The translations under genes were made by a program, and so were the position numbers. From contig CAVEOF010000006.1 of NCBI GenBank assembly GCA_963617165.1, forward strand, positions 1-63,442: a stretch of DNA of 63,442 bases. The letters are read 5' to 3'. Positions within the stretch are counted from its first letter, which is position 1; the number at the start of each line of letters is the position of its first letter. Of this stretch, positions 228 to 38,557 are shown in pieces. Below the pieces are notes generated by a model. The model was not told where the DNA came from. It did no database searches and saw only the letters and a list, made by a program, of their open reading frames with translations. Source of the stretch: Coriobacteriaceae bacterium (GTDB lineage: Bacteria; Bacillota; Clostridia; Oscillospirales; CAG-272).

Positions 228-269
228 AATTCTTAATTCATAATTCTTAATTCTTAATTCTCAATTCTC
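228..269 (-). repeat. Heptanucleotide tandem array, (AATTCWK)n on + = (GAATTMW)n on -, 6 units
   Basis: aattctt aattcat aattctt aattctt aattctc aattctc. It overlaps the sdaA stop codon (261-263) and its last two codons. Confidence 0.9.
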
Positions 270-1529
270 ACTCGTCTTCTTCCAAAGGTCCCGATTGGTT
301 TTTGCGAGTCCGCCCTCGGAGGTCTCGCGATAGGCGCAGGCGATGTCGCGCCCCGTCTCTCGCATGGTGACGATCACCGAGTCGAGGGAGATCTTTCTGA
401 GGTCGGAGAGAAAGTCCGAGATGCGCGCGGCATTGATGGCACGCATGGCGGCGACGGCATTGCGCTCGATGCAGGGGATCTGAACGATTCCACCGATCGG
501 GTCGCAGGTCAAGCCGAGATGGTGCTCGATGGCGATCTCGGCGGCACATTCGATCTTGGAAAGGTCTGCGCCCGCAAGTTCCGAAAGGGCGGCGGCAGCC
601 ATCGCACAGGCGGAGCCGATCTCGACCTGACAACCGCATTCCGCGCCCGAGATCGAGGCATTGGTCTTGATCAGGTTGCCGACGACGCCCGCCGTCAGAA
701 GCGCGTCGCAGATCTCGCGTTCGGAATAGCCCCCGACCGTCTTCTGATAATAGAGCACGGCGGGTAGAACGCCCGCGGCGCCGCAGGTAGGCGCGGTGAC
801 GACCGTCTCTCCCGAGGCGTTCTGTTCTCCGACGGCGAAGGCATAAGCGCAGACAAGGCGATTTTCCGCCGAAGCGGCATCCTCCCCCTGCATCTTGTGT
901 CCGCGATACAGGAGCTTTGCCTTCTTTGCAACGCCGAGTCCCCCGGGGAGGATTCCCTCATCGTCAAGTCCGCGCAGAATGCACGCCTCCATCGTCTCAT
1001 AGACGGTCTTCATATATTCGCCAATCTCTCCCCCTTCGACGCGGCGGACATATTCGGGGATGCGGATCCCCTCTTTTCTACACAGGGCGGCGATCTCGGA
1101 AAATTTCGTCTCGCGGTAGACGATCGGAGCGTTTGTCTCATCCTCCGCCGTCATGTCTCCCGAAAGAAAGCAGATTCGACCGCCTCCGACGCTCACGGCG
1201 GTGGCGTGCCCGAGCTCCTTGCCGCCCCGAAGAGCGAAAAGCTCCATTGTGTTCGGGTGCGGGAGGTCTTCACGCGTCGGATCGAAGATCACCTCGCAGG
1301 GCGCGGGAAGCGTCTTTTCGATCACGCGATCGGTGCCATGCCCTCTGCCCGTCTTGGCAAGCGAGCCGTAGAGCACCGCACGAAAGGCATCTGCCTGCGG
1401 GTACCGCGCGGAAAATGCAAGGCAGGCTCTCTCGGGTCCGATGGTGTGCGAGCTGGACGGTCCTCTGCCGATGCGGTAAAGTTCGGTCAGAGACTCCATT
1501 CCGCAGGGGTATTTTTCCTCGGATTGCAT
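261..1529 (-). CDS. sdaA: L-serine ammonia-lyase (iron-sulfur dependent, single-chain)
   Basis: 422 aa with GRGPSSSHTIGP near the N-terminus and the C-terminal alpha-domain motifs TAPTCGAAG and ECGCQVEIG typical of SdaA. Confidence 0.9.
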   Translation of the reverse strand: MQSEEKYPCGMESLTELYRIGRGPSSSHTIGPERACLAFSARYPQADAFRAVLYGSLAKTGRGHGTDRVIEKTLPAPCEVIFDPTREDLPHPNTMELFALRGGKELGHATAVSVGGGRICFLSGDMTAEDETNAPIVYRETKFSEIAALCRKEGIRIPEYVRRVEGGEIGEYMKTVYETMEACILRGLDDEGILPGGLGVAKKAKLLYRGHKMQGEDAASAENRLVCAYAFAVGEQNASGETVVTAPTCGAAGVLPAVLYYQKTVGGYSEREICDALLTAGVVGNLIKTNASISGAECGCQVEIGSACAMAAAALSELAGADLSKIECAAEIAIEHHLGLTCDPIGGIVQIPCIERNAVAAMRAINAARISDFLSDLRKISLDSVIVTMRETGRDIACAYRETSEGGLAKTNRDLWKKTSEN

Positions 1530-1596
1530 GGAATTTCCCTTTCGTTTCTTTGTTTTTTTCGGTTTTCTCTCGTGGTTTCGGCTACTTAATCTTCAC

Positions 1597-1640
1597 AAAA
1601 GCATTCCGAAGCGGCAGATGCCTCTTCGGAATGCTTTTTA
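1597..1640. terminator. Intrinsic terminator downstream of the lipoprotein gene
   Basis: AAAAGCATTCCGAAG...CTTCGGAATGCTTTT: a 15-bp stem flanked by A and T runs. Confidence 0.7.
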
Positions 1641-1866
1641 GGAGCGATGCCTGTTTGCCGCCGTGTCGTCGGTCCGCGCTCCATGTCTTCGAATGCATAC
1701 GTTGCCGACAATATATGCCGTCATGAAAAGGCGCCGTATGCAATTATATTTCACACCGCCAAGGGTACAACGAATGCTCTTCGGGCAATGCGACAGACCC
1801 TCCACTTCTCTTCGTCCGGGTCGTCGATTCTCCCGGTGAAGACAGCAAAGTCATTGACCGAACGGA

Positions 1867-2409
1867 TCACAGAAAGGGGTGAGGAGGAGTACCGTCCTCG
1901 ATGTTCAGCATATCATAACGGGCATACAGCGTGATGTCCTCTGTAATAACGGTATCAAAGTCGAAAGCGGTATCCGCGCCCTCAAGGAACCATCCGCGAA
2001 AGACGTAGCCCGCTCTGACGGGAGATTTCGGCTTGATTGCCTTTTCGCCGGCGATGACCGTCTGCGCGGGAATGTTCACACTCTCTCCCGCGAAGGTGAC
2101 GGCGAAGGTATTACCCGACGCTTTCGCCTCAAACCGCGCGATCAGGGTGAGGTCGGAATCCACCGCGGCATCAAAGTCGTAGGGCGTATCCGCGCCGTCG
2201 AGATACCATCCGAGGAAGGTATAGCCCTCCTTGACGGGGGCTTGCGGTTCTGCCGCACATTCACCCGACTTTACCGTCTGTTGTGCAGGGAGCGTGATCC
2301 CCTCCCCCGCAAAGGTGACGGTGTGCGACCCGCCGCAGGCGGTCATCGACAGAAGAAGGGTGACGAGCAAAAGGAGACCGAGCGTAAATTTTCCTAAGGT
2401 ATGTTTCAT
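1867..2409 (-). CDS. Lipoprotein with two Listeria-Bacteroides (Flg_new-type) repeats
   Basis: Signal peptide with lipobox LLSMTAC. Two ~70-aa repeats carry GYTFLGWY / GYVFRGWF motifs. Confidence 0.8.
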   Translation of the reverse strand: MKHTLGKFTLGLLLLVTLLLSMTACGGSHTVTFAGEGITLPAQQTVKSGECAAEPQAPVKEGYTFLGWYLDGADTPYDFDAAVDSDLTLIARFEAKASGNTFAVTFAGESVNIPAQTVIAGEKAIKPKSPVRAGYVFRGWFLEGADTAFDFDTVITEDITLYARYDMLNIEDGTPPHPFL

Positions 2410-2787
2410 AATGGCTCCTATCCGACCTTGCGACTTTGCAAAGTCCGTTGTTATCGGTGGATACTTGTACGACCGGGATGCATTCTATTTTGATTATAGC
2501 ACACTTTTCTCTCTCCCGCAATCACTTTTTATAAAATTTATTTTTTATTGCAAGAAAAAATATACAATCTATACGAATGGAAAAATGATTATGGACATCC
2601 CGTTTCTTTCGCATGAAATGTGCCGAAGCGAAGAGGAGTATGATGTATCGTAAGGAAAGATGCCGGATGATTCCATCTCCGGACAGCCAAAGCGCCGCCG
2701 AAGCGCATCCCTTTTCTCCGAGAATCTGCCGTGCGTGGACCGCACATACCGGAACACGACTCGGCATGTTCCTTTCCGACAGAACGA

Positions 2788-2833
2788 CCGAAAACCTCCC
2801 GTCCGCACGGTGCAATACCGTGCGGACGGGAGG
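2788..2833 (-). terminator. Intrinsic terminator of the flavodoxin transcript
   Basis: CCTCCCGTCCGCACGGT-gcaat-ACCGTGCGGACGGGAGG, a 17-bp perfect stem followed on the minus strand by UUUUC. Confidence 0.75.
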
Positions 2834-2979
2834 CTCTTATGAAATTTGGCGAAACGCCAAGCAGGCGTAGCGCGACCAACGTCAAGAAGATCTTCGAATT
2901 CGGAATGACAGAGTTCGGAACCCCATCCGAAGGGAAACCCGCAACCGTCAAACACCAAGCAGAGAAGGCAGGCGCTCCG

Positions 2980-3007
2980 AATTCATAATTCATAATTCAT
3001 AATTCTC
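2980..3007 (-). repeat. Heptanucleotide tandem array, 4 units
   Basis: aattcat x3 then aattctc. The flavodoxin stop codon (3006-3008) lies in the last unit. Confidence 0.9.
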
Positions 3008-3428
3008 ATGAGGCAAGCGCGGCGCCGAGAGCGCGGCAGGCTTCGCACGCCTCATCGTCGGGCGCTTCCTGACAGATCACGCTGTCTGCGGCAAAGGTGA
3101 CACCGAGAGAAGCACACCGCTCCTCCCACGAGCGCATCCACTCGCCGTCCCCCCAACCGTAAGAGCCGAAGAGCGCGATCTTCTTCCCGCGGAGAGCGCC
3201 CTCACATGCCTCGAACACGGGGAGGAATTCCGCGTCTTCCAGCTCCTCCGCGCCCATAGCGGGACAGCCGAATGCGAGGGCGTCATAAGACGCGGCACTC
3301 GACGCGTCGAAGGATGACGCCTCAAACAACGTGGCATCCGCCCCCGCCGCCTTTGCTCCAGCGAGAACCTCTTCTGCCATGGCTTTGGTGTTGCCGGTTC
3401 CGCTCCAATACACGATCGATACTTTCAT
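3006..3428 (-). CDS. Flavodoxin (short-chain)
   Basis: MKVSIVYWSGTGNTKAMAE is the FMN-binding loop. GGAG lies 8 nt upstream of the ATG at 3428, so the ORF-track start at 3461 was trimmed. Confidence 0.9.
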   Translation of the reverse strand: MKVSIVYWSGTGNTKAMAEEVLAGAKAAGADATLFEASSFDASSAASYDALAFGCPAMGAEELEDAEFLPVFEACEGALRGKKIALFGSYGWGDGEWMRSWEERCASLGVTFAADSVICQEAPDDEACEACRALGAALAS

Positions 3429-3450
3429 TTTTCTATCTCCTTTGTAAATA

Positions 3451-4017
3451 TTATTTTGCATTTTTTGTATTTTTTACAACAAGTTTATCAAACGACGCAT
3501 TTCGTCTGTAAGCTTTCAGATAATGCTCGGTGCACTTTTTATAGAGGGCAAAACGTTCTTTTGCCGCCTCTTCGTCTCCGTAGACGCGCCACGTTCCGAC
3601 GCATTTCGCTCCGCGCGGTCCGTAGGTCATGAAGCCGTGGACATCCTCCGGAGGGTAGCCGAGGAACAGCCCGACCTCGTGCGGGAATTCTTTCTCCTCC
3701 CGCAGGCGGCGAAGCATCTCGGAAACGCAGAGCTCGGTATCACGGACGGGATAATCCCGCTCGTCGAGGATCTGCGCGGCAAGGGGATCTTTGAGGTCGC
3801 GCGCAAGCTTTTCGGGACGGTACATATAGAGCAGGGTGCGACCGCCGACCTCCTTTACGGGGAGGATCCGCACGCCGCGCGGTACCATACGGCGATTGAA
3901 ATCGCGAAGGCTCTCGCGAATTCCCTGCCCGTCCTCCTTCGGACAGGTGAAGAGGTTCCCCGTCTTCAAGCCTGCCATGGTCGGCGAGCAGTTTCGTATG
4001 ACAAATTCTTCGGGCAT
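3451..4017 (-). CDS. DUF3793-family protein
   Basis: 188 aa with CSPTMAGLKTGNLF and FPHEVGLFLGYP, motifs I associate with DUF3793. This family usually sits next to flavodoxin in Clostridia. Confidence 0.7.
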   Translation of the reverse strand: MPEEFVIRNCSPTMAGLKTGNLFTCPKEDGQGIRESLRDFNRRMVPRGVRILPVKEVGGRTLLYMYRPEKLARDLKDPLAAQILDERDYPVRDTELCVSEMLRRLREEKEFPHEVGLFLGYPPEDVHGFMTYGPRGAKCVGTWRVYGDEEAAKERFALYKKCTEHYLKAYRRNASFDKLVVKNTKNAK

Positions 4018-4217
4018 GTGTTTCTCCTTCTATGATTATCATATGCTAACTCATGCTTAAAATCATGCCGCCCGAGGGAGCGAAAAAACGTTTTGTACGT
4101 CTTCCCTCTGCCGCTCGGGCGGCGGGGGTAAATTCGGAGGAGGCGTTCCCGCGCAAAGACTTCGGACATCGTACGCGGTCGGTCTTCCCCGAAACGGAGG
4201 ACTTTAGAGGATCGCTT

Positions 4218-4410
4218 CGGACGTTTACCGAAGCGGTGAGCTGTAAGGCTTGCGTTCGGGCTTTCGCCGAAGCGGTGGGCTGTAAGCTTGCGTTTGGGCT
4301 TTCGCCGAAGCGGTGAGCTGTAACGCTCGCGTTGGGCTTTTGTCAAAACAGCGGGCTACAACGCGCGCTTCGGCTTTTACCGAGGCGGCGAATTTCAGAA
4401 GATCCTGTTC
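4218..4410. repeat. Tandem ~39-bp GC-rich repeat, about 5 degenerating copies
   Basis: Unit CGGGCTTTCGCCGAAGCGGTGRGCTGTAAGCTTGCGTT at roughly 4218, 4257, 4296, 4334 and 4372. It runs into the stop codon of the HMA gene. Confidence 0.85.
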
Positions 4411-4413
4411 GGC

Positions 4414-4680
4414 TTACTTTTTCCCGAATAGCGAGGCAAAGAAGCCGGGCTTTTTCTCGTACGGCTCGCATGTCATGCCTCCGAAAGTATATCCCGTCTT
4501 GTCGATCACGGCGTGAATCTCCTCCTCGCTCGGCGCGTTCTCGAGAAGCATGACCGTCTCCCCCTTCGCATGGGAAGAGCTGACCTTTTTCACGGGGAAT
4601 GCCGCGCGAATGGCGTCATTGATATGTGCCTCGCACATAGAGCACGCCATACCGTCGATTTTCAGAGTTACTTTTACCAT
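4414..4680 (-). CDS. Heavy-metal-associated (HMA) domain protein, CopZ-like
   Basis: MVKVTLKIDGMACSMCEAH contains the GMxCxxC metal-binding motif. GGAGGA lies 8 nt upstream of the ATG at 4680. Confidence 0.85.
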   Translation of the reverse strand: MVKVTLKIDGMACSMCEAHINDAIRAAFPVKKVSSSHAKGETVMLLENAPSEEEIHAVIDKTGYTFGGMTCEPYEKKPGFFASLFGKK

Positions 4681-4717: not shown

Positions 4718-4870
4718 TTACTTTTTGCCTGTTTTACTCGGATTCGGAGAAGAAAGCCGACGCTTGATCAATCGCCGCATCCATTTCCGAATCAGCACGC
4801 AAACCGTTACGATCGCGGCGGATGCCGCCACCGAAGCCCAAAATTCAAAGCTCAAAAGCGCATCAAACAT
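4718..4870 (-). CDS. Small membrane protein (50 aa), hypothetical
   Basis: GGGAGGAG lies 6 nt upstream of the ATG. The product has one predicted TM helix (FWASVAASAAIVTVCVLI) and a basic tail. It lies 37 nt upstream of the HMA gene. No homology recognised. Confidence 0.4.
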   Translation of the reverse strand: MFDALLSFEFWASVAASAAIVTVCVLIRKWMRRLIKRRLSSPNPSKTGKK

Positions 4871-4980: not shown

Positions 4981-7278
4981 TTACTCCGCGCCCTTCAATG
5001 CCTCGACCATATCGATCTTGCGGTTCTTTCTCGCCACGAAGAAGCTGACGAGAAGGGACATACCGACGGTCAGAAGGATCGAGACGAAGACGGAGAGGAC
5101 ACTGACCGACAGCTGCATCTCGTACTCACCCGCGAGCGCCTTCAATAAGTAATCGAGCGTCAGGATCCCGACGGGTAAGCCCACCGCGGCGCCGAGCAGG
5201 CTGAGCCAGAGGTTCTGCCCGATGAGAAGCTGTCCGATGCGCCTATCCTGAAAGCCGACGACCTTCAGGGTCGCCATCTCGCGATAGCGCTCGGTATAAC
5301 TCATGACACCGAGGTTATAGAGCACGACGACACCGAGCAGCAATGCTCCCGCGACGAGAATATAGATCATCTTGTTCATGATGTCGAGGAAGGTATCGAA
5401 GGTATCGATGATCGCCTGCTTTTCCTGCACCGATTTGATGGCGGAGGTGGCGCCGATCTCCGCCTTCGCGGTATCGGTATACAAGGAGTCGTAGCGATAC
5501 GAAATGCCGAGAGAGTCGGCGTAAGCGGGGGACATGGCGACGCTCTCCGACGCGCTCCGGAAGACGCCCGCCACGCGGAGCGTATAGGTCTTCTCCGAGC
5601 CGTAGGGGCTGACGGTGAAGGTGTCCCCCGCGGAAAGCCCGAAGGCATCGGCAAGGCGCACGCAGATATACGCGCCGTCCTCGGGGAGGGTGACGTACCC
5701 GCCCTTTTCCAGAGGGAAGCGGATCTTCTCGTGCGTCACTTCGTAGACGTCGAGGGAGATCGATTTTTCGGTGTCCCTCCATTCCCGCTTCATCTCGACG
5801 TAGAGGGAAGCGCTCCTGTCCGCGTCGTAGCGCGAGGCGAGCGCGTCCGCGTCCTCCGCCGTCGCATCCTCGGAGAGGTAAATGCGGGAGGAATAGTTGG
5901 TCACGTCACGGTAATAGAGATCGAGAAAGGCATCCATCGTGTCCCGCATACCGAGCGAGGCGATGATCAGAAGCATACACCCCGTAATGCCGACAAGCGT
6001 CATGGCGGTGCGGGATCTGTGCCGCATGATGTCACGCAGATTCCAACGGGTACCGAAGGAGAACTTGTGAAAGAGCTTTGTCTTCTCGATGAGAAGGGGC
6101 TTCATCTTCTTCGGCGTATACGGACGCAGAGCATCCGCCGCGGTACCGCGGAGCATCTCCTTGACCGACAAAAATCCGATGAGGGTCAGAAGAAGGAAAA
6201 CAACCGCCAAGACGAGGATCACAAAGGTCGGGAGGACGAGACGCCACTCGGGGAAATCCATGTAGGTGCCCATCATACCGTTCGGATCCATGATATATGC
6301 GGCGATGCCATACCCGATGCCGATGCCGCCCGCGATGCCGACAAGCCCCACGAAGACGGCGTAGGAGGTATAATGCAGAAGGATCCGCCTGTCCTTATAC
6401 CCGAGCGCCTTCAGGGTACCGATCTGCGTCTTTTCCTTCACCGCGAGGCGGTGCATGGTAGTGACCATGGTCAAGACCGCGATCAGAAGGAAGAGGACGG
6501 GGAGGATCGTCCCCATGGTCTTCCCTTCCTCGACTTCCCCTTCGGCAGAGGAATAGGAGGCGGTCTCACTCTTTTCGAAGATGAGGGTCGTCTTTCCGAC
6601 GGCGCTGTTCAGTTTCTCCGAAAACTCGGTCTTTGACAGGTCGGAGAGCACGCGGAGGTCGGTATAAAACTCGAAGCCCGCCACCGACCGATAGAAAGCG
6701 GGGGAGATATATGCGAAGGCGTAGGTCGAAAGATCGGGCATGAGCTGCGACGAATCTCTCGTGCAGATCAGATACTCGCCCGACTTGATGAGCCCTTCGA
6801 CTTTCCCGACAAATTCTTTGTTTGCGTAAACAAGAGTTAGCGTATCGCCGACTTTTACGTTGTTTTTCTCTGCGTATTGGTCGGAGATCCAGATGCCGTC
6901 GGTGCTCTTTTCGTCATACTCGTTTCCCGACATCAGAAGAAATCCCGAGACGGCGGGATCGGTGGTCACGGTGAGAGAAAGGCTGTCTCCCTCCCGCTCC
7001 TTCACGTCGGTATTGACGGCGATGTAGCGCGCCGCGCGGCGGACGCCCTCAATGCCTGCGACCCGCTCGCGCTCCTCTTCGGAGAAGCCGGTCTCCGAGC
7101 GAATGAGATAATCGGCATAGCCCGTCTTCTCGAAGAAGGAGTCCATGTTCTCCTCAATGCTCGCCCACTCCATATTGAAGCCGACGAACACGCCGATGCC
7201 GAGCGCGATCATAATGACCATGGAGATAAACTGCGCTTTGTACTGCCGCATGGTGCGGATAAGCTTCAAAAACAGCAT
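4981..7278 (-). CDS. ABC transporter permease, double FtsX domain (MacB/Bce-like)
   Basis: 765 aa with two FtsX-type 4-TM modules, each preceded by a large extracytoplasmic domain. The gene follows the ATPase gene directly. Confidence 0.85.
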   Translation of the reverse strand: MLFLKLIRTMRQYKAQFISMVIMIALGIGVFVGFNMEWASIEENMDSFFEKTGYADYLIRSETGFSEEERERVAGIEGVRRAARYIAVNTDVKEREGDSLSLTVTTDPAVSGFLLMSGNEYDEKSTDGIWISDQYAEKNNVKVGDTLTLVYANKEFVGKVEGLIKSGEYLICTRDSSQLMPDLSTYAFAYISPAFYRSVAGFEFYTDLRVLSDLSKTEFSEKLNSAVGKTTLIFEKSETASYSSAEGEVEEGKTMGTILPVLFLLIAVLTMVTTMHRLAVKEKTQIGTLKALGYKDRRILLHYTSYAVFVGLVGIAGGIGIGYGIAAYIMDPNGMMGTYMDFPEWRLVLPTFVILVLAVVFLLLTLIGFLSVKEMLRGTAADALRPYTPKKMKPLLIEKTKLFHKFSFGTRWNLRDIMRHRSRTAMTLVGITGCMLLIIASLGMRDTMDAFLDLYYRDVTNYSSRIYLSEDATAEDADALASRYDADRSASLYVEMKREWRDTEKSISLDVYEVTHEKIRFPLEKGGYVTLPEDGAYICVRLADAFGLSAGDTFTVSPYGSEKTYTLRVAGVFRSASESVAMSPAYADSLGISYRYDSLYTDTAKAEIGATSAIKSVQEKQAIIDTFDTFLDIMNKMIYILVAGALLLGVVVLYNLGVMSYTERYREMATLKVVGFQDRRIGQLLIGQNLWLSLLGAAVGLPVGILTLDYLLKALAGEYEMQLSVSVLSVFVSILLTVGMSLLVSFFVARKNRKIDMVEALKGAE

Positions 7279-12814: not shown

Positions 12815-12863
12815 CAAAAAAGACAGCCGCAAACGGGATCTTCGGATCCCGTTTGCGGCTGTC
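12815..12863 (-). terminator. Intrinsic terminator of the hydrogenase (hfs-like) operon
   Basis: GACAGCCGCAAACGGGATC-ttcg-GATCCCGTTTGCGGCTGTC, a 19-bp perfect stem followed on the minus strand by UUUUUU. Confidence 0.85.
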
Positions 12864-12940
12864 GTGATGGTGTAGAATCCGCGCAAAGGTCACAAAACGT
12901 ATGACGACCTACCGCGCAAGCCTTCCAAAACATCCGTCCG

Positions 12941-12989
12941 AATTTCGAATTCTTAATTCATAATTCTTAATTCTGAATTCTGAATTCTC
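12941..12989 (-). repeat. Heptanucleotide tandem array, 7 units
   Basis: aatttcg aattctt aattcat aattctt aattctg aattctg aattctc. It ends 10 nt from the hydrogenase stop codon (13000-13002). Confidence 0.9.
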
Positions 12990-12999: not shown

Positions 13000-14421
13000 T
13001 TATTTCAGCACCGACGTCGCGTCCTTGATGGTCTTTTCGAGCGCTTCGCGGCCGTATTTGTCGACCTCGGCTTTGTTCTTTTCGCCGTGGGTGAGACAGC
13101 CCGCGCCGCCGATACAACCGCCGACGCACGCCATACCTTCGATAAAGTTGGCGTCGAGCTTTTCCTTGCTCTTTTGAAGCAGGGCGATCTTGCACTGTTC
13201 GATGCCGTCGCAGGTGCAGGGCTTCAGCAGGAAGTCGATCCCCTGCTCCTTGAGTCCCTCCGCCACCGCGTCGGAAAGTCCGCCCGAGCGGGCGAAGATG
13301 CGTCCGAAGTAGGACGCGTTATCGAGGACGCCCTCCTCCAGCGTCGTGATGTCGATGTCGCGGCTGTCGAAGAGCGCCTGAAGCTCTTCAAAGGTCATGG
13401 CGGCATCCACGTAGGGCTTCACGCTCTCGCGCTGTACCTCCATCTTTTTCGCGGTGCAGGGACCGATGAAGACGACCTTGCAATGTCCTTCATGCTCCTT
13501 GATATACTTCGCGATGGCGGTCATCGGCGAAGGATTGTGCGAGACGAAGGGCATCAGTGCGGGGAACGCCTTCTCGATGTAGCTGACGAATGCGGGGCAA
13601 CAGGAGCTCGTCAAAAATCCCTTCTCGGCAAGCTCGCGGGATTCCGCCTCCGCGACCATATCGGCGCCGAGTGCCGCCTCGATCACGGTGTGGAAGCCGA
13701 GCTTATGTAATCCCGTAATGACCTGCCCGAGCTTCGCATAGGTGAACTGGCTCGAGATCGAGGGAGCGACGACGGCATAGATCTTATAATTCTGATTGCC
13801 GTGACTTCCTTTCAGCATGTCGATCACGTTCAGGATATAGGATTTGTCGGTGATGGCGCCGAAGGGGCACTGATACACGCAGGCGCCGCAGGAGATGCAC
13901 TTGCCGTTATCGATGCACGCCTGCTTGTCCTCGCCCATCGAGATGGCTTTCACCTTGCAGGCGGTCTCGCAGGGGCGCTTATAGTTATGGATCGCGCTGT
14001 ACGGGCAGACCTTCGAGCAGGCGCCGCACTCCTTGCATTTGGTCTTGTCGATGTGGGCAACGTGGTTCTGATCGAAGGTGATGGCGCCGAAGCGGCAGAC
14101 GTCCTCGCAACGGTGCGCAAGGCATCCGCGGCAGGCGTTCGTCACCTCGTAGCCGCCCATCGGGCACTCGTCGCAGGCGATGTCGATGACCTCGATCACG
14201 TTCGGGTTGCTCTTATCGCCGCCCATGGCGAGCTTGACCCGCTCGGCGAGGATGGCTCTCTCTTTATAGACGCAGCAACGCATGGTCGGCACCTTACCGG
14301 GGACGATCGTCTTCGGAATGTCGATGGCGTTCTCCGCGAGCTTATCCGCCCACGCCTGTCTTGCGACCTCGCGCAGAACCTTGTATTTCAGATGCTGTAC
14401 CTTGGTATCGAATTTTCTCAT
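13000..14421 (-). CDS. Monomeric [FeFe] hydrogenase (HfsD-like catalytic subunit)
   Basis: Ferredoxin-like CxxCxxCxxxCP clusters plus H-cluster motifs SSCCPAF, GPCTAKKME and GMACVGGCIGGAG. Start trimmed to MRKF (14421). Confidence 0.9.
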   Translation of the reverse strand: MRKFDTKVQHLKYKVLREVARQAWADKLAENAIDIPKTIVPGKVPTMRCCVYKERAILAERVKLAMGGDKSNPNVIEVIDIACDECPMGGYEVTNACRGCLAHRCEDVCRFGAITFDQNHVAHIDKTKCKECGACSKVCPYSAIHNYKRPCETACKVKAISMGEDKQACIDNGKCISCGACVYQCPFGAITDKSYILNVIDMLKGSHGNQNYKIYAVVAPSISSQFTYAKLGQVITGLHKLGFHTVIEAALGADMVAEAESRELAEKGFLTSSCCPAFVSYIEKAFPALMPFVSHNPSPMTAIAKYIKEHEGHCKVVFIGPCTAKKMEVQRESVKPYVDAAMTFEELQALFDSRDIDITTLEEGVLDNASYFGRIFARSGGLSDAVAEGLKEQGIDFLLKPCTCDGIEQCKIALLQKSKEKLDANFIEGMACVGGCIGGAGCLTHGEKNKAEVDKYGREALEKTIKDATSVLK

Positions 14422-14432
14422 GGCTCGTTTCC

Positions 14433-15605
14433 TCAAAAATAACTGACTTTGATCCGTTTGCCCATCTTCACAAGGCATTTCGAGAGCTCCTCGACGAGGT
14501 TCATCTTAATGTTGAAGTTGATGGGTAGGTCGGGGTTCTGGTGTGCGGGGTTGACCGCCCGTCCGACGTAAAAATTGATGTCCGTCGCCTCCTCAAAGAG
14601 AAGACGGCAGATCAGGGAGGCTCCGTCGTGACCGAAGCTCCACTTCTCGTAAAGCTTGTTGTCTCCGACGGCATCTTTTGCATATTCCACCACGCGGTTG
14701 ACGGTAATGACGCCCTCGGTAACGAGGTCGACGCCCTCGATTTCCGCGATCGGAGGAATGTCGCTACGTACAAATTGTAAACTTGTCTTTACCGTTTTGC
14801 CGAGATATTTCGCCGCGATGGAGGATGTGGTGCCTCCGCAGATGATATGTTTTCCCTCCTTCGAGAAGAAAAGCGACATCATACGGTTCGCGTCGTCTCG
14901 GTTCGCGGGGGGACCGAAGAGGATGTTCATCGGGACTCTGCGCCGTACCTTTACGACGCAGGCGGTCGCGTCGTCTCCCGGCTTTTTGCCGTAGAGCTTA
15001 TCGACCTCGTCGATGAGGATCGTGGAGAGCGTCTTCGCGGTATAGCCCGCCGCCGAGACCGCCTCCATATATGCGATGATGTCATTTCGTTTCCAACCGA
15101 AATTATACGCCGTACCGATGCCCGCGTGGGGACAACCGTCGCTCATGGCGATGAAAATATCGTCCTCGAGCAGCTTGATCTGCGACTTGAAGATCTTCTT
15201 GCCGTCGATGTTCATCTCGGTGCGGGGATACTCGTAATTTTTTCCGTCGCGAAGGAGAATGACCTGCGGATTGTCGTACTGGATAAGCTCCATCTCCCGA
15301 TTGTCGACAAGGTGCATGATCGTGAAGGTGGAATAGGCGACGCCGCGCACCGAGCAGATGGGCAGGGTCTTCGCGATCGTCTCGACGCAATCCTCGAGCG
15401 TCAGCTCCGCCGCCATCATGGTCGAGATGATCTTCGCCGTGAGGGTGGAGAGGATGCTCGCCTTCACGCCGCTGCCGAGTCCGTCGGCAAGGACGATAAC
15501 GGTCGAATTCTCCCCCTGCTCCACGACGTCGACATGGTCACCGCAAAGCTGCTCTCCCGCGTGGTTGATGCTTCGGTAGCCGATATCGGCACAAAGGTCA
15601 TTCAT
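14433..15605 (-). CDS. PP2C/SpoIIE-family serine phosphatase (HfsC-like)
   Basis: N-terminal GEQLCGDHV...VLADGLGSGVKAS is a PP2C-type metal site. The gene lies between the sensory and catalytic hydrogenase genes. Confidence 0.85.
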   Translation of the reverse strand: MNDLCADIGYRSINHAGEQLCGDHVDVVEQGENSTVIVLADGLGSGVKASILSTLTAKIISTMMAAELTLEDCVETIAKTLPICSVRGVAYSTFTIMHLVDNREMELIQYDNPQVILLRDGKNYEYPRTEMNIDGKKIFKSQIKLLEDDIFIAMSDGCPHAGIGTAYNFGWKRNDIIAYMEAVSAAGYTAKTLSTILIDEVDKLYGKKPGDDATACVVKVRRRVPMNILFGPPANRDDANRMMSLFFSKEGKHIICGGTTSSIAAKYLGKTVKTSLQFVRSDIPPIAEIEGVDLVTEGVITVNRVVEYAKDAVGDNKLYEKWSFGHDGASLICRLLFEEATDINFYVGRAVNPAHQNPDLPINFNIKMNLVEELSKCLVKMGKRIKVSYF

Positions 15606-17274
15606 CCGAAATACTCTCCTTCAGCTTGGTGAGGGCGATCTTCGTCTCCGCGGCGGTCTCTCCGAGCAGAGAGGCGATCTCCTGAACGATGCGCATCTGC
15701 TTATCCACGACCTTATCGGCGATCTCCACCGTGCGGCGGCTGATGTCTTCCTTCTTCTCCCGCTCGGTCTCCTCGTCGGTCACGTCACGCATGATGCAGA
15801 CGAGGAGACGGTAGGTCGCGTCGTAAATGACCGTCTGCTCAACGTAGCGGTTATACTCCGCGAGGAAGACGCGCTGATCGCGGATCGAGCGCTTGGTCTC
15901 GAGCACCTTTAGGAAGATGGCGGGGTCGAGAATTCTCACGACTTGATCGCCGAGGACGTCGGAGGCGCTGCGGATGTTCATGATCTTCCGCGCGGCGGCA
16001 TTGATCTGCTGAACCTCGAGGGCGTCGTTGACGACGATCAGCCCGTTCGGCGTATTGTTGACGATGCAATCGGAGAAGCTCTCGGCTTTGTCCTTGAGGA
16101 AGGGCAGGCACATGGAGATCTCCGCCTTGCCGTGATAGACGGCGATCGCCTTCTCGCGGCAGGTATTGTAGCCGCAGGAGCCGCAGTTCAGCTCGTCCTC
16201 CGGCTTCATCTTACCCATCTTATGTAGGATCTCGGTGATCTCGCTCTCGGAGGGGATCCCGTTCCGCAGCTCGATCGCCTCGAAATTCTTGCGCAGGGTG
16301 TCCTCCGCGGGGCTTGCCACCTCGAAGTCGCGCGAGCCGGCGTAAGAGGCGACCGCGGTGTAATCCGAGACGGGGCTGCGATGGTATTTTTCCATCACGG
16401 GGCCGCCGACACAGCTGCCGATGCAGGCAGACATTTCGATGAAGCAGTGATGGATCTTACCGCTCTCGATGTCGCGAAGCGCCGCCATGCAGTTCTCCAC
16501 GCCGTCGAGCGCGAGGTAGGTATAGCCCTCGGCGTTCTGCGCCATGGTCTTGAGAATTCCGCCCGTCGTCGGGAAGAAGCGCGCGCGGCTCTCTTCCTTA
16601 TGATCGGGCTTCGGCTCGAGGGTGATGTGCTCCGCCTCGAACCAACGCGTCAGCTCCTCGTAGGTGAGGACGGCGTCGGCGTAGCCCTCGTAATGCTCCG
16701 CCTCGTCCTTCTTCGCGACGCAGGGGCCGATGAAGACGGTCTTCGCATTCGGGAAGCGGCGCTTGATGTCCGCGCAGTGTGCCTGCATCGGAGAGAGCAC
16801 GTCGGCAAGATAGGGGAGCTCCGCGGGAAAATATTTCTGGATCAGAAGATTGATCGAATGACAACAGGAAGAGATGAGAATATCCCTGTCGCCCTTCGCG
16901 AGGATGGCTTCGTACTCGCGCTTGACAATGGTGGCGCCGACAGCGGTCTCCTCCGCATCGGCGAAGCCGAGCTTACGGAGCGCGTCGCGCATCCCCTCGA
17001 TGCCGATGCCCTGATAATTCGCGATAAAGGAAGGCGCAAGGCTCACGTAGACGGGATCGCCCGACTGGATGAGGACCTTCACCTTCTCGGTGCTGTCGGT
17101 GATCTGCTTCGCGTTCTGCGGGCAGACGACAAAGCACTGTCCGCAAAGAATACACTCGTTGCCGATGATGTGCGCCTGATTACCCGAAAAGCGAATGGAT
17201 TTCACGGGGCAATGGCGAATGCACTTATAGCAGTTTTTACAGTTCGATTTTTTTAGAGTCAAGCAATCGGACAT
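15598..17274 (-). CDS. Sensory-type [FeFe] hydrogenase with C-terminal PAS domain (HydS/HfsB-like)
   Basis: Two 4Fe-4S motifs, H-cluster-like SSCCHS, GPCVAKKDE and MSACIGSCVGG, an extra CGSCGYNTC cluster, then a PAS-like domain and a coiled tail. Confidence 0.85.
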   Translation of the reverse strand: MSDCLTLKKSNCKNCYKCIRHCPVKSIRFSGNQAHIIGNECILCGQCFVVCPQNAKQITDSTEKVKVLIQSGDPVYVSLAPSFIANYQGIGIEGMRDALRKLGFADAEETAVGATIVKREYEAILAKGDRDILISSCCHSINLLIQKYFPAELPYLADVLSPMQAHCADIKRRFPNAKTVFIGPCVAKKDEAEHYEGYADAVLTYEELTRWFEAEHITLEPKPDHKEESRARFFPTTGGILKTMAQNAEGYTYLALDGVENCMAALRDIESGKIHHCFIEMSACIGSCVGGPVMEKYHRSPVSDYTAVASYAGSRDFEVASPAEDTLRKNFEAIELRNGIPSESEITEILHKMGKMKPEDELNCGSCGYNTCREKAIAVYHGKAEISMCLPFLKDKAESFSDCIVNNTPNGLIVVNDALEVQQINAAARKIMNIRSASDVLGDQVVRILDPAIFLKVLETKRSIRDQRVFLAEYNRYVEQTVIYDATYRLLVCIMRDVTDEETEREKKEDISRRTVEIADKVVDKQMRIVQEIASLLGETAAETKIALTKLKESISDE

Positions 17275-17331
17275 GGTTTCTCTTCCTTTTCAAAGGATTT
17301 TGCAAAGAATTGTTTTCAAATATACAAAAAA

Positions 17332-21561: not shown

Positions 21562-21630
21562 ATATCCTATCCTTTCTTAATATAACCTTGTGTTGTTCTT
21601 CTCCCGAAAACGGGAAGGTGTGCCGTGCCT

Positions 21631-22373: not shown

Positions 22374-22428
22374 TAAAAATCCGACAGCCAAAGGCAGGAG
22401 AAAATCTGCCTTTGGCTGTCGGTGTTTT
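22374..22428. terminator. Bidirectional intrinsic terminator
   Basis: CCGACAGCCAAAGGCAG-gagaaaat-CTGCCTTTGGCTGTCGG, a 17-bp stem flanked by A and T runs. Confidence 0.8.
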
Positions 22429-22479: not shown

Positions 22480-22518
22480 AATTCATTCTTAATTCTTAAT
22501 TCTTAATTCATAATTTAC
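22480..22518 (-). repeat. Heptanucleotide tandem array, about 5 units
   Basis: aattcat (tctt) aattctt aattctt aattcat aatttac. It contains the stop codon (22515-22517) of the CvpA-like gene. Confidence 0.85.
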
Positions 22519-23711
22519 TCAATGGCGAAGAGATCCTTGAGCTTTGCGATGGTCTCTGCGTCGGCGTCGGCGGGCGTCAGCTTTTCGATGGCGCTCTCTA
22601 CCTTTGCCTTATCGCTCTCGCTAAGGTCGATGGCTTCGTTTTGCGAGGTGAGGATCGGGAGGATGATGTCGCTCTTTGCAAGGTGCTTGATCAGCGAGTC
22701 GACGTCGGGCTCCTTCGTCTCGTCCTGAAGGGCGAGCATGTCGCCGATCAGATCCGCTTCGTTTGCGAAATCGATCTCGGTCAGATCAAAGTTATCGAGG
22801 TCGATCGGGAAGTTTTCCTTCTCCTCCGCGGGAATGACGGAATCGGCGAGCGAACGGATCAGGTCGTTGATGACTTCGAGCGTTTCGGGGCTTGCGTCCT
22901 GCTTGATCTGCTCGATGTTGCGGAGCATGGTCTGGATCTCGCCGACGTTCTCTTCGGTAAGTTCGCCCTCGAAGTTGATGTTCGACATCTTCGCCACTTC
23001 ATTCGCGATCTTCGCGCTCGTCGCGATGGCGTCGATCTGCGTATCGAGATGTACCTTATTGCCGTTTGCATCCGTGGTCGTGGTGAGAAGGTCATAGTAG
23101 AAGGTGCCGATGGCGCCGTAGACCTTCATGAAGGGATCGTCCTTGATCTCCTCGAGGTCGATCTGCGAGGTGAATTCCTCGGGAAGGGAGTCGCTGACCT
23201 TCTGCCCGTCCACCTCGACGTCCGACAGCTTCAACAGCGTACCCGTCAGACCGAGCACGGGCATCTCGAGAAGGTAGAACACGAGGAAGCCGGCGAGAAG
23301 TCCCGTCAGCATACCGCCGAGGCGGCGCACCTTCTGACTCTTGTCCTTCTTTACGAAGATCTTGCAGATCGGGAAGACGATGAGCCACGAAAGGAATTGC
23401 AGAACGATAAACAGGAGGAGGTAGACGATGAGTCCGACGAGGATATTGATGATCGGGACGAGCTTATCTTTGACGCCCGCCATTTCCTCGGGGATGTTGC
23501 TCGCGAGCATCTGCTCGAAGGTCTGTCCGTCCATATTGATCTGCCAGAGGGCATTGATCACGACGTCACGAAGGAAGAACGCGCCGACGGCGCAAAGAAG
23601 GAGCAGAACGATGCGGAGCACCGAACGCTTGACCCCGCGGTGCAGTCCGAACAGAAGCCCGAACAGAAGACACACGCCGAGTCCGATGAGAGCGGAGGTT
23701 GTGAAGGTCAT
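22515..23711 (-). CDS. Membrane protein, CvpA-like N-terminus plus long acidic soluble domain
   Basis: Four predicted TM helices in the first ~160 aa, then ~230 aa of acidic sequence. The family assignment is tentative. Confidence 0.6.
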   Translation of the reverse strand: MTFTTSALIGLGVCLLFGLLFGLHRGVKRSVLRIVLLLLCAVGAFFLRDVVINALWQINMDGQTFEQMLASNIPEEMAGVKDKLVPIINILVGLIVYLLLFIVLQFLSWLIVFPICKIFVKKDKSQKVRRLGGMLTGLLAGFLVFYLLEMPVLGLTGTLLKLSDVEVDGQKVSDSLPEEFTSQIDLEEIKDDPFMKVYGAIGTFYYDLLTTTTDANGNKVHLDTQIDAIATSAKIANEVAKMSNINFEGELTEENVGEIQTMLRNIEQIKQDASPETLEVINDLIRSLADSVIPAEEKENFPIDLDNFDLTEIDFANEADLIGDMLALQDETKEPDVDSLIKHLAKSDIILPILTSQNEAIDLSESDKAKVESAIEKLTPADADAETIAKLKDLFAIE

Positions 23712-36102: not shown

Positions 36103-36111
36103 TGGTATAAT
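36103..36111 (+). promoter_or_regulatory. Extended -10 element (TGgTATAAT) upstream of the DUF1385-prmC operon
   Basis: TGGTATAAT in an AT-rich stretch. No good -35 element. Confidence 0.4.
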
Positions 36112-36187: not shown

Positions 36188-36253
36188 AACTTGCGTTGCC
36201 TCCGTGCCCTAAGAAAGGAAGCCTTTGCGTTTTGCGAAGGTAGGGTCTTCAAA

Positions 36254-37597
36254 TTGAAAAAATACAGTGACGGAAAATGCCCCGAGCGCTGTAACCGCGT
36301 AGGCGGTCAGGCGGTGCTCGAGGGTGTCATGATGAAGGCGGGCGAGCACACCGTGACGACCTGCCGCAAGGAGGACGGGTCGCTCGCCGTTTACGACGAC
36401 AGCTTCGTCTCCGTTCGGAAAAAGCATAAGCTTCTGAACCTGCCGATCCTGCGCGGGGTTATCAACTTCGTCGAGATGATGAAGCTCAGCTTCAAGACCA
36501 TGTCGGTCTCGGCGGACGCGATGGGACTCGAGGAGGAAGAGGGACGCTTCGAAAAGTGGCTCAAAAAGCATTTCGGCATCGGTGTCACCGAGGTGGTGAC
36601 CGTGATCGGGGTAATTCTCGGTGTGGCGTTGGCTCTCTTTTTGTTCCTTTGGCTCCCGACCTTCCTTGCGGGGTTGTTTGACACGGCGGTCGGCAGTGTG
36701 CTCGGCGCGTGGCGTGCGGTGCTCGAGGGTGTGATGAAGATCGGCATCTTCCTCGTCTACCTTTGGCTCGTGTCCCTGATGCCCGAGATCCGACGCGTCT
36801 TCATGTACCACGGGGCGGAACACAAATCGATCGCCTGCTTCGAATCGGGCACCGAGCTGACCCCCGAGAATGCGAAGAATTACACGCGCTTTCACCCGCG
36901 TTGCGGGACGAGCTTCATGTTCTTCATGATCCTGATCGGCATCTTTGCGGGCTTGTTTATCCGCCTGATCTTCCCCGATCTGCCAAATCTTGTTTACGTT
37001 TTGATCCGTCTTCTGATCCTTCCCCTCGTGGTCGGCATCGGATATGAATTTATCATGTATGCGGGCAAGCACGAAAATCCCTTGACCCGTGCGCTCTCCG
37101 CCCCCGGGCTGTGGGTACAGCGGCTGACGACAAGAGAGCCCGACCTCTCCATGCTCGAGGTGGCGATCACCTCTCTGAAATGCGCCCTGCGCGACGACTT
37201 CCCCGAATTCAGGGAATTCTATGAGAGCCGTCCGTGGGAGAAGAAAGAAGAATCTCTTCCTTCCGACGTAACGGAAGCGGCGGCAAACGAAGCCGACAGC
37301 GCCCCCCGCGCGGAGGACGCGCAGGTGACGGAAGCATCGGGCGACGAGAGTGTTTCTCCCGTGATAGCGGAAGAGGCGCGGGTCTCCGAGGCGGAAAACG
37401 CGATCGATGCGAAGGCGGTAATCGAAACGGAAGAAAGCGACACGACCGAAACGAATGACATGACCGCTTCGGAAGAAAACAACATGACCGAAGCGAACGG
37501 CACGACCGAAGCGGAAGAAAACGGAACGGCCGAGAACGCCGCCCCGACGGACGACGTGACCGAACGCGAAGAGGGTGAGCAAGGAGCCTCGGCATGA
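36254..37597 (+). CDS. DUF1385-domain membrane protein (YqhQ-like) with acidic low-complexity tail
   Basis: GGQAVLEGVMMK and YHGAEHK motifs. The start is uncertain: TTG at 36254 is preferred, because the ATG at 36179 lies inside the heptamer array. The stop overlaps the prmC start. Confidence 0.8.
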   Translation: MKKYSDGKCPERCNRVGGQAVLEGVMMKAGEHTVTTCRKEDGSLAVYDDSFVSVRKKHKLLNLPILRGVINFVEMMKLSFKTMSVSADAMGLEEEEGRFEKWLKKHFGIGVTEVVTVIGVILGVALALFLFLWLPTFLAGLFDTAVGSVLGAWRAVLEGVMKIGIFLVYLWLVSLMPEIRRVFMYHGAEHKSIACFESGTELTPENAKNYTRFHPRCGTSFMFFMILIGIFAGLFIRLIFPDLPNLVYVLIRLLILPLVVGIGYEFIMYAGKHENPLTRALSAPGLWVQRLTTREPDLSMLEVAITSLKCALRDDFPEFREFYESRPWEKKEESLPSDVTEAAANEADSAPRAEDAQVTEASGDESVSPVIAEEARVSEAENAIDAKAVIETEESDTTETNDMTASEENNMTEANGTTEAEENGTAENAAPTDDVTEREEGEQGASA

Positions 37598-38409
37598 CCG
37601 TGCGGGAGGCGGCGGCAAGACTGCGCGCCGCGAACATCCCCGAACCGCTTTATGAAGCAAGACGATTGTTCGAAGCCTTCGCAAATATCCCCGTCGCCGC
37701 GCAGATCGGGCGCGACCCGTCCTCCGACGCGCCCGCGCTCGAGCGGGCGGTCAAACGGCGGGAGGCACGGGAGCCGCTCGCCTACATTCTCGGCGAATGG
37801 GGCTTTTACAAGGAGAGCTATCTTCTCTCCCCCGACTGTCTCATTCCGCGCGAGGACACCGAGCTTCTCGTCGAGACGGCGATCTCGGAGCTTTCCTCGG
37901 GCGCGGTCTTTGCCGATCTGTGCACGGGGTGCGGCTGTATCGGGCTCTCGGTGCTAAAACACACGGCAGGAACGCGCGCGTTGCTCCTCGACATTTCGGA
38001 GGGCGCCGTGCAAACGGCAAGGACGAACGCCGAGCGGCTCGGACTCTCGGACCGCAGCGAGTTTCTCGTCGCGGACGTGAAGAGCGCTACGATCGGCGGC
38101 GGCTTCGACGCCATTTTATCGAATCCTCCTTATATCAAAAAGGACGTCTATCCGACCCTTGCCGCGGAGATTGCGTGGGAACCCGCGCGCGCCTTTCTCG
38201 GCGGGGAGGACGGAATGGAATTTTACCGCGTGTTCCTCTCACGTTACAAAAATTGCCTGTCGCCGAACGGTTTTTTTGCCTTCGAGATCGGGTACGATGA
38301 AGAGGACGCCATCCGCGCCCTCGCCGCAGAGCACGGCTTTTCCTGCCGCGTCCTCTGCGACCTGTCAAACAACCCGCGCGTAGCCGTACTACGCAAAGAA
38401 AAAGAGTAA
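37594..38409 (+). CDS. prmC: Peptide chain release factor N5-glutamine methyltransferase
   Basis: SAM motif DLCTGCGCIG and the catalytic NPPY (ILSNPPYI). Confidence 0.9.
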   Translation: MTVREAAARLRAANIPEPLYEARRLFEAFANIPVAAQIGRDPSSDAPALERAVKRREAREPLAYILGEWGFYKESYLLSPDCLIPREDTELLVETAISELSSGAVFADLCTGCGCIGLSVLKHTAGTRALLLDISEGAVQTARTNAERLGLSDRSEFLVADVKSATIGGGFDAILSNPPYIKKDVYPTLAAEIAWEPARAFLGGEDGMEFYRVFLSRYKNCLSPNGFFAFEIGYDEEDAIRALAAEHGFSCRVLCDLSNNPRVAVLRKEKE

Positions 38410-38501
38410 AAAGAGTAAAAAAGCGAAGCCTCACACGCCGAGCTTTGCCGAACCGAAAAAGCAAAACCTCAACAAAAAGCAAAAAACGCAAGCCCGCTCC
38501 G

Positions 38502-38557
38502 AATTCATAATTCATAATTCATAATTCTTAATTCATAATTCTGAATTCTGAATTCTT
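38502..38557 (-). repeat. Heptanucleotide tandem array, 8 units (longest copy)
   Basis: aattcat x3, aattctt, aattcat, aattctg x2, aattctt, preceded by gcaagcccgctccg. It lies between prmC and ddl (both + strand), so it is antisense to the local genes. Confidence 0.9.

Follow-up and report, generated by a model that had tools for sequence, protein, structure and literature searches.

What are the six AT-rich tandem arrays that punctuate a GC-rich contig of a metagenome-assembled genome (MAG) from gut Clostridia, and why do most of them lie directly behind genes? The stretch of DNA analysed here, hereafter the window, comprises all 63,442 nucleotides (nt) taken from contig CAVEOF010000006.1 (assembly GCA_963617165.1), and within it a 7-nt unit of the GAATTNN family, (GAATTMW)n, forms six dispersed arrays of 4-9 units each. 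What is new about these arrays is their sequence family; the kind of repeat to which they belong is known, if still unexplained. Heptanucleotide repeats have been known from bacteria since 1990, and in many genomes no other long simple repeats are as over-represented; their origin and function are not established. To this class, the present analysis adds a family of AT-rich units, built around a palindromic core and recurring in Clostridia, cyanobacteria, Bacteroidota, Lentisphaerota and soil metagenomes, direct cases of arrays that rewrite the C-terminus and the stop codon of a housekeeping gene, and a strand polarity, statistically solid, with respect to the gene ending beside the array.

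All six arrays reported in the initial annotation are present, and each of these regions, when read, resolves into tandem 7-nt units. They are listed here with the strand that is purine-rich, that is, the one in the GAATTMW sense:

226-268, minus strand: array 1, 6 units, GAATTGA GAATTAA GAATTAA GAATTAT GAATTAA GAATTAG
2979-3005, minus strand: array 2, about 4 units, (GAATTAT)3 GAATTCG
12941-12988, minus strand: array 3, 7 units, GAATTCA GAATTCA GAATTAA GAATTAT GAATTAA GAATTCG AAATTCG, the last one degenerate
22480-22518, minus strand: array 4, about 5 units, AAATTAT (degenerate) (GAATTAA)3 GAATGAA
36141-36187, plus strand: array 5, about 6 units, GAGTTCA GAATTCA GAATTAA GAATTAT GAATTAA GAATTAT GATTTCG
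38501-38563, minus strand: array 6, about 9 units, GAATGAA GAATTCA GAATTCA GAATTAT GAATTAA (GAATTAT)3 GAATTCG

The two-unit pattern GAATTMWGAATTMW, with at most one mismatch allowed, matches the window 39 times against 0.40 matches expected, and none of 100 shuffles comes near this count. Tandem Repeats Finder assigns to the arrays a period of 7, with 3.7-8.9 copies and 87-100% matches, and detects no other genuine period-7 array in the 63 kb, only two trivial 2-copy runs besides. A 2-unit remnant that had been proposed at 17857-17870 carries two mismatches to the pattern and falls within chance. The GC content of the arrays is 15-28%, compared to 55-63% across the window, its last 8 kb excepted. 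The order of the units is partly shared between sites: arrays 3 and 5 contain an identical 37-nt run with the unit order CA-CA-AA-AT-AA, and arrays 3, 5 and 6 each run from C-type units (such as GAATTCA) on the 5' side to a CG unit on the 3' side.

Which genes and signals do the arrays adjoin? The true genes in the window were picked by Pfam scans combined with third-position GC, and those relevant to the arrays, together with the predicted transcription signals, are the following:

96-136, minus strand: intrinsic terminator of sdaA, 18-bp stem and U-run, about 90 nt past array 1
261-1529, minus strand: sdaA, with its TGA stop codon (261-263) inside array 1 and an array-encoded tail (SEN, then the stop)
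2786-2836, minus strand: terminator-like hairpin, 20-bp stem and UUUU, about 145 nt past array 2
3006-3461, minus strand: flavodoxin gene, the TGA of which (3006-3008) directly abuts array 2
12816-12863, minus strand: intrinsic terminator, 19-bp stem and TTTTTT, about 78 nt past array 3
13000-14421, minus strand: [FeFe]-hydrogenase-like gene with a TAA stop (13000-13002); array 3 begins 11 nt later
22375-22422, minus strand: bidirectional intrinsic terminator, 17-18-bp stem, about 58 nt past array 4
22515-23711, minus strand: gene for a weakly CvpA-like protein of 398 amino acids, with its TAA (22515-22517) in the first, degenerate unit of array 4
36106-36111, plus strand: conserved TATAAT box about 30 nt 5' of array 5, kept in a syntenic relative
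36254, plus strand: likely TTG start of the DUF1385-prmC operon (inferred), about 67 nt 3' of array 5, which lies in the 5' leader of this plus-strand operon in the GAAUUMW sense
38409 and 38617, plus strand: prmC stop and ddl start, with array 6 in between, antisense to both

As initially annotated, four arrays lie at the ends of minus-strand genes, where they either overlap the stop codon or begin 0-11 nt past it; of the three arrays said to contain the stop codon, arrays 1 and 4 do, whereas array 2 merely abuts it. The order stop codon, array, terminator hairpin (58-145 nt further on) holds for arrays 1-4 (4/4). Because a strong terminator hairpin follows each of these four arrays, they must, by this prediction, lie inside 3' untranslated regions (UTRs) and be transcribed together with the upstream gene. 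The claim that five of the six arrays have the same sense in the local transcript also stands, with array 5 agreeing as a leader and array 6 alone being opposite. A minus-strand open reading frame (ORF) at array 6 (38557-39711) is a shadow of ddl. Apart from the stop-codon overlap, all six arrays are non-coding, and the genes that flank them are unrelated to each other and have housekeeping functions; an exact-sequence look-up returned no record for the flavodoxin.

The arrays themselves contain no U-run and thus are not intrinsic terminators, which combine a GC-rich hairpin with a U-run. RNA folding predicts that all-A-type arrays are unstructured (0 kcal/mol) and that arrays with GAAUUC units at both ends fold weakly, the range for the arrays overall being 0 to -13 kcal/mol. 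In neither the window nor 16 related loci does any Rfam 15 family reach its gathering score, and a search of positions 1-4600 in E-value mode gives chance-level matches only; the search for tRNA and tmRNA made alongside found none.

How stable are the arrays in evolution? Comparison with relatives provides the most informative evidence. The arrays recur in the closest relatives, at 93-97% identity, with units reshuffled or decayed; sister species, at 77-88%, have none of them. The contig L128, which shares 93.7% identity with the window along 6.5 kb, has an orthologous array 3 with diverged units (AGAATTC AGAATTG AAAGTC AGAATTC AGAATGA TGAATGA TAAATTT TGATTTC); inside the array, the identity to the window drops to 71%, with indels, whereas the coding sequence next to it reaches 95% and the UTR beyond it 90%. 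Seven sister-species contigs (L121-126 and L129), at about 87% nucleotide identity, lack array 3, and 14 nt (GAAAATGCTCAGAT) replace the roughly 75-nt array 3 segment. The ortholog of array 1 in L135 (sdaA 97% identical) consists of 6 units with a shifted AA/AT order, such as one unit loss and one unit gain would give, and the same contig has a second array 1 nt past the stop codon of a convergent gene. More distantly, in L140 (sdaA with 85% amino-acid identity), the array starts within sdaA, so that the tail of the protein (FRIQN, then the stop) is encoded by TTCAGAATTCAGAATTAA, and a further array lies over the stop codon of the next gene. Array 1 is absent in three lineages at 82-84% (L136-139, L265-270 and L271). 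An ortholog of array 6 is found in L130 (prmC 95%), where the contig ends inside the array, and arrays 5 and 6 are both absent from L131-134 (77%), among which L131 is syntenic with the window and carries Coat_F and DnaB_2 genes. The unit content thus varies between close relatives, as the comparison of the window with L128, L135 and L130 indicates. Judging by these alignments, the arrays are lineage-specific, gained and lost, and can outpace their surroundings in evolution; no particular gene has them as a conserved regulatory element.

The same comparisons bear on the trivial explanation that the arrays are artefacts of assembly or vector sequence. The related contig L130 does end inside an array, which is the one hint in this direction, but orthologous arrays occur in four independent assemblies (L128, L130, L135 and L140) that differ in sample and assembler, a sequencing read is longer than any of the arrays, and the flanking reading frames are intact. 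These observations effectively refute an artefact, to which we give practically no credence.

Two further observations come from the sites of arrays 4 and 1 in relatives. The segment 22375-23711, with the gene for the CvpA-like protein, array 4 and the bidirectional terminator, is missing in the sister species, where Peptidase_M19 is directly followed by Rex, so that this segment of the window is a lineage-specific insertion. Among L265-L269, which come from different samples and are otherwise identical, there are 3 or 6 nt differences upstream of sdaA, with the sdaA start at 1286, 1289 or 1292, suggesting a trinucleotide length polymorphism.

What process could produce arrays of this kind? 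With moderate confidence, we regard them as slippage-driven microsatellites that accumulate in the unconstrained spacer behind stop codons and are passively carried in UTRs. Slipped-strand mispairing and unequal exchange would create the arrays, lengthen and shorten them, and reorder their units at the site itself, and the palindromic AATT/GAATTC core may help slippage because the single strand can fold back. They would persist where extra AT-rich sequence is tolerated, chiefly in the spacer that precedes the intrinsic terminator and reaches from the stop codon to whatever structure comes first in the 3'UTR, and the transcript of the upstream gene would include them as an AU-rich stretch with little structure. 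An array could also grow into the end of a gene, supply a new stop codon and rewrite the last residues, as in sdaA, because GAATTAA and GAATTAT units contain TAA or TGA in all three frames. Slippage in tolerant spacer is supported by the turnover of orthologous arrays in place (arrays 1 and 3), by their sporadic presence, by their tandem structure as the one period-7 family of the window, by the location of arrays 1-4 ahead of terminators, by the additional arrays at stop codons in L135 and L140, by the lack of kinship among the flanking housekeeping genes, and by the published class of heptanucleotide repeats, which has the same properties.

The initial annotation had suggested a contingency tract, in which changes of the unit number would toggle the neighbouring genes by phase variation. 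In favour of this, the repeats are prone to slippage, three arrays are in contact with a stop codon, and another is part of a 5' leader. However, the all-frame stops of the A-type units limit the effect of a 7-nt step to the last 0-3 residues, which leaves no on/off switch; the neighbours belong to central metabolism rather than to surface structures, and neither 5' coding regions nor promoter spacers contain an array. Contingency loci are accordingly a far-fetched explanation.

Are the arrays part of a larger, possibly mobile, element? The initial annotation described a composite in which every array ends in GAATTCGG(A)(G/C)CG and is followed by GC-rich GGCTTGCG. The ending is found in arrays 2, 3 and 6 and the GC-rich sequence after arrays 1, 3 and 6, but in each case not in the other three. 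GAATTCG is an ordinary variant unit, and (GAATTCG)n runs adjoin (GAATTCA)n and (GAATTAA)n in many metagenome contigs; the CGGA that recurs after arrays is the beginning of another, decayed unit. As for GGCTTGCG, it occurs in 10 copies in the window, compared to 3.4 expected, and 4 of these are found no more than 25 nt beyond the 3' end of arrays 1, 3 and 6 (191-218, 12915-12922 and 38487-38494). It is located within 3'UTR hairpins, and from GGCTTGCG onward the sequence is conserved in the sister species at the orthologous site that lacks array 3. Because it is also present at this array-less site, GGCTTGCG is host 3'UTR sequence. The supposed composite end is thus no element of its own.

The notion that an array marks the terminus of a miniature mobile element fares no better. 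Comparison of the flanks of the six copies identifies nothing in common beyond 7 nt, and neither these flanks nor the alignment with the empty site contains terminal inverted repeats or a target-site duplication. The unit is a 7-mer in direct tandem, unlike the 20-40-nt imperfect palindrome that is the unit of repetitive extragenic palindromic sequences (REP) and bacterial interspersed mosaic elements (BIME), which are often accompanied by a RAYT transposase in the genome, and a miniature inverted-repeat transposable element (MITE) is not recognizable either, given that only the 7-nt CGGAGCG is common, and only to three copies. This heptamer adjoins arrays 2 and 6 on the 3' side and array 5 on the 5' side, and is not enriched across the window. 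Along with the identical 37-nt run of arrays 3 and 5, the same unit polarity of arrays 3, 5 and 6, the enrichment of GGCTTGCG beside arrays and the presence of a single unit family, the CGGAGCG sites are what could be expected if the arrays spread by copy-and-paste, through a MITE-like, reverse-transcriptase- or recombinase-mediated process or through ectopic gene conversion. Such spread nevertheless appears improbable considering the missing ends and duplications, the presence of GGCTTGCG at an empty site, the ordinary nature of GAATTCG, the divergence of orthologous arrays in place, and the scanned genes of the window, none of which encodes a transposase, a RAYT or a reverse transcriptase.

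How widespread is the family? A scan of one genome per GTDB species yields at least 120 matches to the four-unit pattern, and the matches listed span Bacteroidota, Cyanobacteria, Lentisphaerota, Planctomycetota, Chloroflexota, Verrucomicrobiota, Spirochaetota, Clostridia and Patescibacteria. The carriers include the cultured strains Xylanibacter caecicola PCHR (L067), Alkaliphilus serpentinus LacT (L050), Microcystis aeruginosa LEGE 91341 (L024) and Thermobacterium salinum TK19130 (L046). Among the matches listed, the metagenome arrays that end in GAATTCGG include many soil and sediment contigs of 60-70% GC. Arrays elsewhere often grade into related heptamers (GCATTCA, CGTATTC, GGGCATT, GAGAATT), and among variant units the AATT core is the best conserved part and the G the most variable one, a ranking partly confounded by edge effects. 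Viral contigs contain four-unit arrays of GAATTCW (4), CAATTGW (4), GATATCW (3), GTTAACW (1) and CTTAAGW (1); with counts this low and without any sign of a preference, we cannot claim that GAATTC is special among palindrome-core heptamers.

Some of these distant loci have architectures of their own. In the Lentisphaeria MAGs L010, L033, L034, L086, L103 and L114, a recurrent composite, CCCTAAC-(GAATTAT)n-GAAATGCGCCTC-(AGCATTC)n, looks like a higher-order repeat of two heptamer families, and L033 has three copies of it about 90 nt apart. A Chloroflexia MAG (L049) contains, at 3034-3116, 4840-4865 and 5617-5706, inverted pairs in which (TTAATTC)n is followed, after about 30 nt, by (GAATTAA)n, and which could form long AT-rich intergenic hairpins. 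In five metagenome contigs (L141, L200, L204, L210 and L240), the T-run of a terminator is immediately followed by AATTCG GAATTAT GAATTAT GAATTCG GAATTGACGGTCGCG, so that in this module the array lies past the terminator, not ahead of it.

Do the arrays of other genomes keep to gene ends as those of the window do? Among the matches listed, 276 arrays from 240 unrelated loci could be oriented. For this test, we defined ORFs conservatively, as frames open for 150 codons or more, with an additional third-position GC filter for GC-rich loci, and counted a stop codon as abutting when it fell within -28 to +30 nt of the 5' end of the array; start-codon distances from the ORF caller are unreliable and were excluded from the results. 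The counts, given as stop codons at the 5' end on the purine-rich strand versus the other strand, are:

All arrays: 82 vs 25 (p = 3e-8)
A-type units: 51 vs 14
C-type units: 31 vs 11
Stop strictly upstream of the array, A-type: 23 vs 8
Stop strictly upstream of the array, C-type: 23 vs 8
Loci below 50% GC: 34 vs 8
Loci of at least 50% GC: 48 vs 17

Both the bias toward stop codons and the orientation bias, on which the initial annotation had staked the association with gene ends, hold in the window and across the 240 loci. By the heuristic ORF caller, only 3 of 109 arrays of other genomes lie inside ORFs; a simple home-made terminator finder gives 9 matches for 232 arrays of other taxa. The supply of stop codons by the arrays is ruled out as the cause of the polarity because (GAATTCA)n, which contains no stop in any sense frame, exhibits the same bias. 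Moreover, the two strands of C-type units differ in the spacer base alone, and the polarity still holds.

Strand polarity speaks for an RNA element, and such an element in the 3'UTR was among the roles initially suggested. According to this explanation, here widened to include the 5'UTR, (GAAUUNN)n behind the stop codon would be a single-stranded, AU-rich platform, either an entry or cleavage site for RNase Y (in Firmicutes) or RNase E (elsewhere), or a pad with multiple sites for an RNA-binding protein; cleavage would part the coding region from the protective terminator hairpin, and the unit number would tune the life-time of the mRNA. The polarity extends across phyla, to both unit types and to both GC classes, all four post-stop arrays of the window lie between stop and terminator, and the arrays are predicted to be unpaired. 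The consensus for RNase E is R-N↓W-U-U, and GA↓AUU of the unit fits it. For RNase Y of S. aureus, a cutting preference 3' of a G in an A/U-rich region has been reported (PMC4608709), which the single G in A/U context of each 7-nt unit matches. The G as the conserved, nuclease-defining position was considered and rejected: it is the most variable position, AATT being the most conserved, although edge effects confound this comparison. Apart from the conservation of the G, the gain and loss of arrays between close relatives behind unrelated genes, the antisense orientation of array 6 to both its neighbours and the absence of an Rfam match argue against an RNA element. On balance, we consider this explanation possible but unlikely. 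Still more doubtful is its broadest form, under which (GAAUUNN)n would be a pan-bacterial, orientation-specific UTR module, post-stop and pre-terminator, that acts on the transcript, most plausibly as an entry platform for a decay-initiating endonuclease or for a conserved single-strand RNA-binding protein.

A role at the level of DNA would involve binding of nucleoid-associated or AT-hook-type proteins, a topological barrier at gene ends, or a promoter on the pyrimidine strand (TTCATA-17-CATAAT). At about 15-28% GC, the arrays stand out as AT-rich islands from a genome of 58% GC, their palindromic AATT/GAATTC core is the best conserved part of the unit, and array 6 has a promoter-like score on the plus strand, upstream of ddl. 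However, the polarity is kept in C-type units, which are nearly strand-symmetric as a duplex and not promoter-like, a pyrimidine-strand promoter in arrays 1-4 would fire antisense into the gene, and a period of 7 bp does not keep step with the helical turn of DNA. As for ddl, a -10-like box (TATACT) lies 3' of array 6 and is also kept in the array-less relatives. We therefore deem a DNA-level role quite improbable. A link to restriction-modification through avoidance of GAATTC was likewise considered and dismissed, because outside the arrays this hexamer is over-represented in the window (41 observed vs about 11 expected).

Returning to slippage in unconstrained spacer, which we favour, four points weigh against it. 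The strand polarity is not expected of a purely neutral repeat and holds for C-type arrays, too. The identical 37-nt run of arrays 3 and 5 and the CGGAGCG heptamer beside three arrays hint at copying between sites. Generic slippage of heptamers cannot be the whole story when a single heptamer family is present. Finally, the case for slippage comes from comparison between relatives that differ in more than the unit number. Neutral slippage does not predict the polarity, and therefore an RNA-level role is worth testing. If the arrays were a UTR module, slippage in 7-nt steps would make them a heritable, rapidly evolving dial of mRNA stability, and the long-unexplained bacterial heptanucleotide repeats would have a function. 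On the practical side, such arrays break short-read assemblies and produce misleading shadow ORFs.

The window has several features besides the arrays. Past the U-run of the sdaA terminator (1-97, minus strand), the sequence runs GTGCGCTCGGCATGCGATACAAC...GGTGAAAGTCC, and L135 is unrelated to the window from exactly this point; this segment, which has no Rfam match, looks like the 5' end of a class C (terminator-targeting) group II intron running off the window. An intergenic 38-nt tandem repeat at 4228-4340 (2.9 copies, 90% identity) contains CGCTTGCG in its unit, and tandem repeats of 42, 36 and 33 nt at 37423-37522, 43005-43106 and 46533-46642 (2.4-3.3 copies) apparently are located in reading frames. 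The region 56000-63442, with 46-50% GC as opposed to about 58% elsewhere, may be an acquired island; it encodes a WYL-domain regulator, a DUF6273 protein and a protein of 1291 amino acids with an InlB B-repeat domain. The hydrogenase/AdhE/Rex cluster at 13000-22254 has many homologues at 85-98% (loci L121-L129), one of which is labelled Treponema sp. (85% identity), whereas the rest of the window is clearly of Clostridia origin and the sdaA and prmC relatives are labelled Clostridiales or Clostridia; this discrepancy points to horizontal transfer or to a binning error in the public record. Treponema as the host was considered on the strength of that one label and rejected, since these relatives, together with the Coat_F and DnaB_2 genes of L131, place the window in a high-GC gut MAG of the Clostridia.

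How do the arrays relate to the heptanucleotide repeats already described? The classic example of the class is the short tandemly repeated repetitive (STRR) sequences of cyanobacteria. These sequences, which Mazel et al. reportedly described in 1990, are said to have the units CCCCAGT, TTGGTCA and CAACAGT and to have originally been found in heterocystous cyanobacteria only. Like the arrays of the window, they are tandemly amplified heptanucleotides in non-coding DNA, with many copies per genome; their units are different. A Richelia MAG (L001) carries (GAATTAA)n beside GGGCATT/GGGTATT arrays. Heptamer families of its own are also found in Geobacter metallireducens.

As a statistical class, heptanucleotides are the most abundant long simple sequence repeats (SSRs) in many prokaryote genomes, and polymerase slippage has been proposed as their source (Mrazek, Guo and Shah 2007, as related in PMC4679880 and PMC4692102). 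This class, as far as the accessible accounts of it go, resembles the present arrays in its tandem 7-nt units, dispersal, intergenic bias, over-representation of period 7 and proposed slippage; unlike the present arrays, it is defined statistically, not by sequence families, and these accounts mention neither GAATTNN nor abutment to stop codons nor polarity.

Closer in placement are the GGGAATC repeats of Xanthomonas, which are 89-93% intergenic and lie at a mean distance of 28 nt from the upstream ORF vs 160 nt from the downstream ORF (Rehm et al. 2015, PMC4692102). These repeats and GGGGA(T/C)T of Nostoc are transcribed and vary in length and sequence between close relatives, with no function found (PMC4692102). 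The intergenic location close to the 3' end of the upstream ORF and the variability between relatives are shared with the arrays studied here, but both of those families are G-rich and form G-quadruplexes, whereas the GAATTNN units are AT-rich, with a palindromic AATT core and unable to form a G-quadruplex; the hosts also differ, a Clostridia MAG here as against Xanthomonas and Nostoc.

The TAACTGA repeats of marine Beggiatoaceae, cyanobacteria and Bacteroidetes are intergenic arrays of 2-43 copies (MacGregor 2015, PMC4679880); a single unit dominates in each genome, the occurrence among phyla is patchy, and strains differ by indels in multiples of 7 nt (PMC4679880). Here, too, the arrays are intergenic heptamers, patchy across phyla, with one dominant unit per genome; the difference is in placement, in that TAACTGA in Beggiatoaceae is mostly found in the forward orientation a few nt 5' of start codons, and the arrays here mostly just past stop codons. 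Phase-variable SSRs, such as the tetranucleotides of Haemophilus influenzae (PMC2651432), are likewise slippage-prone tandem repeats beside genes, but they reside in 5' coding regions or promoter spacers and switch expression on and off, whereas the present arrays lie at or past stop codons and cannot act as switches.

The initial impression that the arrays belong to no described repeat family is therefore right for the unit and wrong for the kind: a literature search found no description of GAATTNN, the strings occurring only in primers and unrelated sequences, whereas the kind is well known from SSRs, STRR sequences, GGGAATC and TAACTGA. With 3.7-8.9 tandem copies, six dispersed arrays of one unit family in 38 kb, a non-coding bias near the 3' end of the upstream ORF and variation between close relatives, the GAATTNN arrays, although we found no description of their sequence family, are slippage-prone heptanucleotide microsatellites of the same kind as the STRR sequences and the long SSRs (LSSRs).

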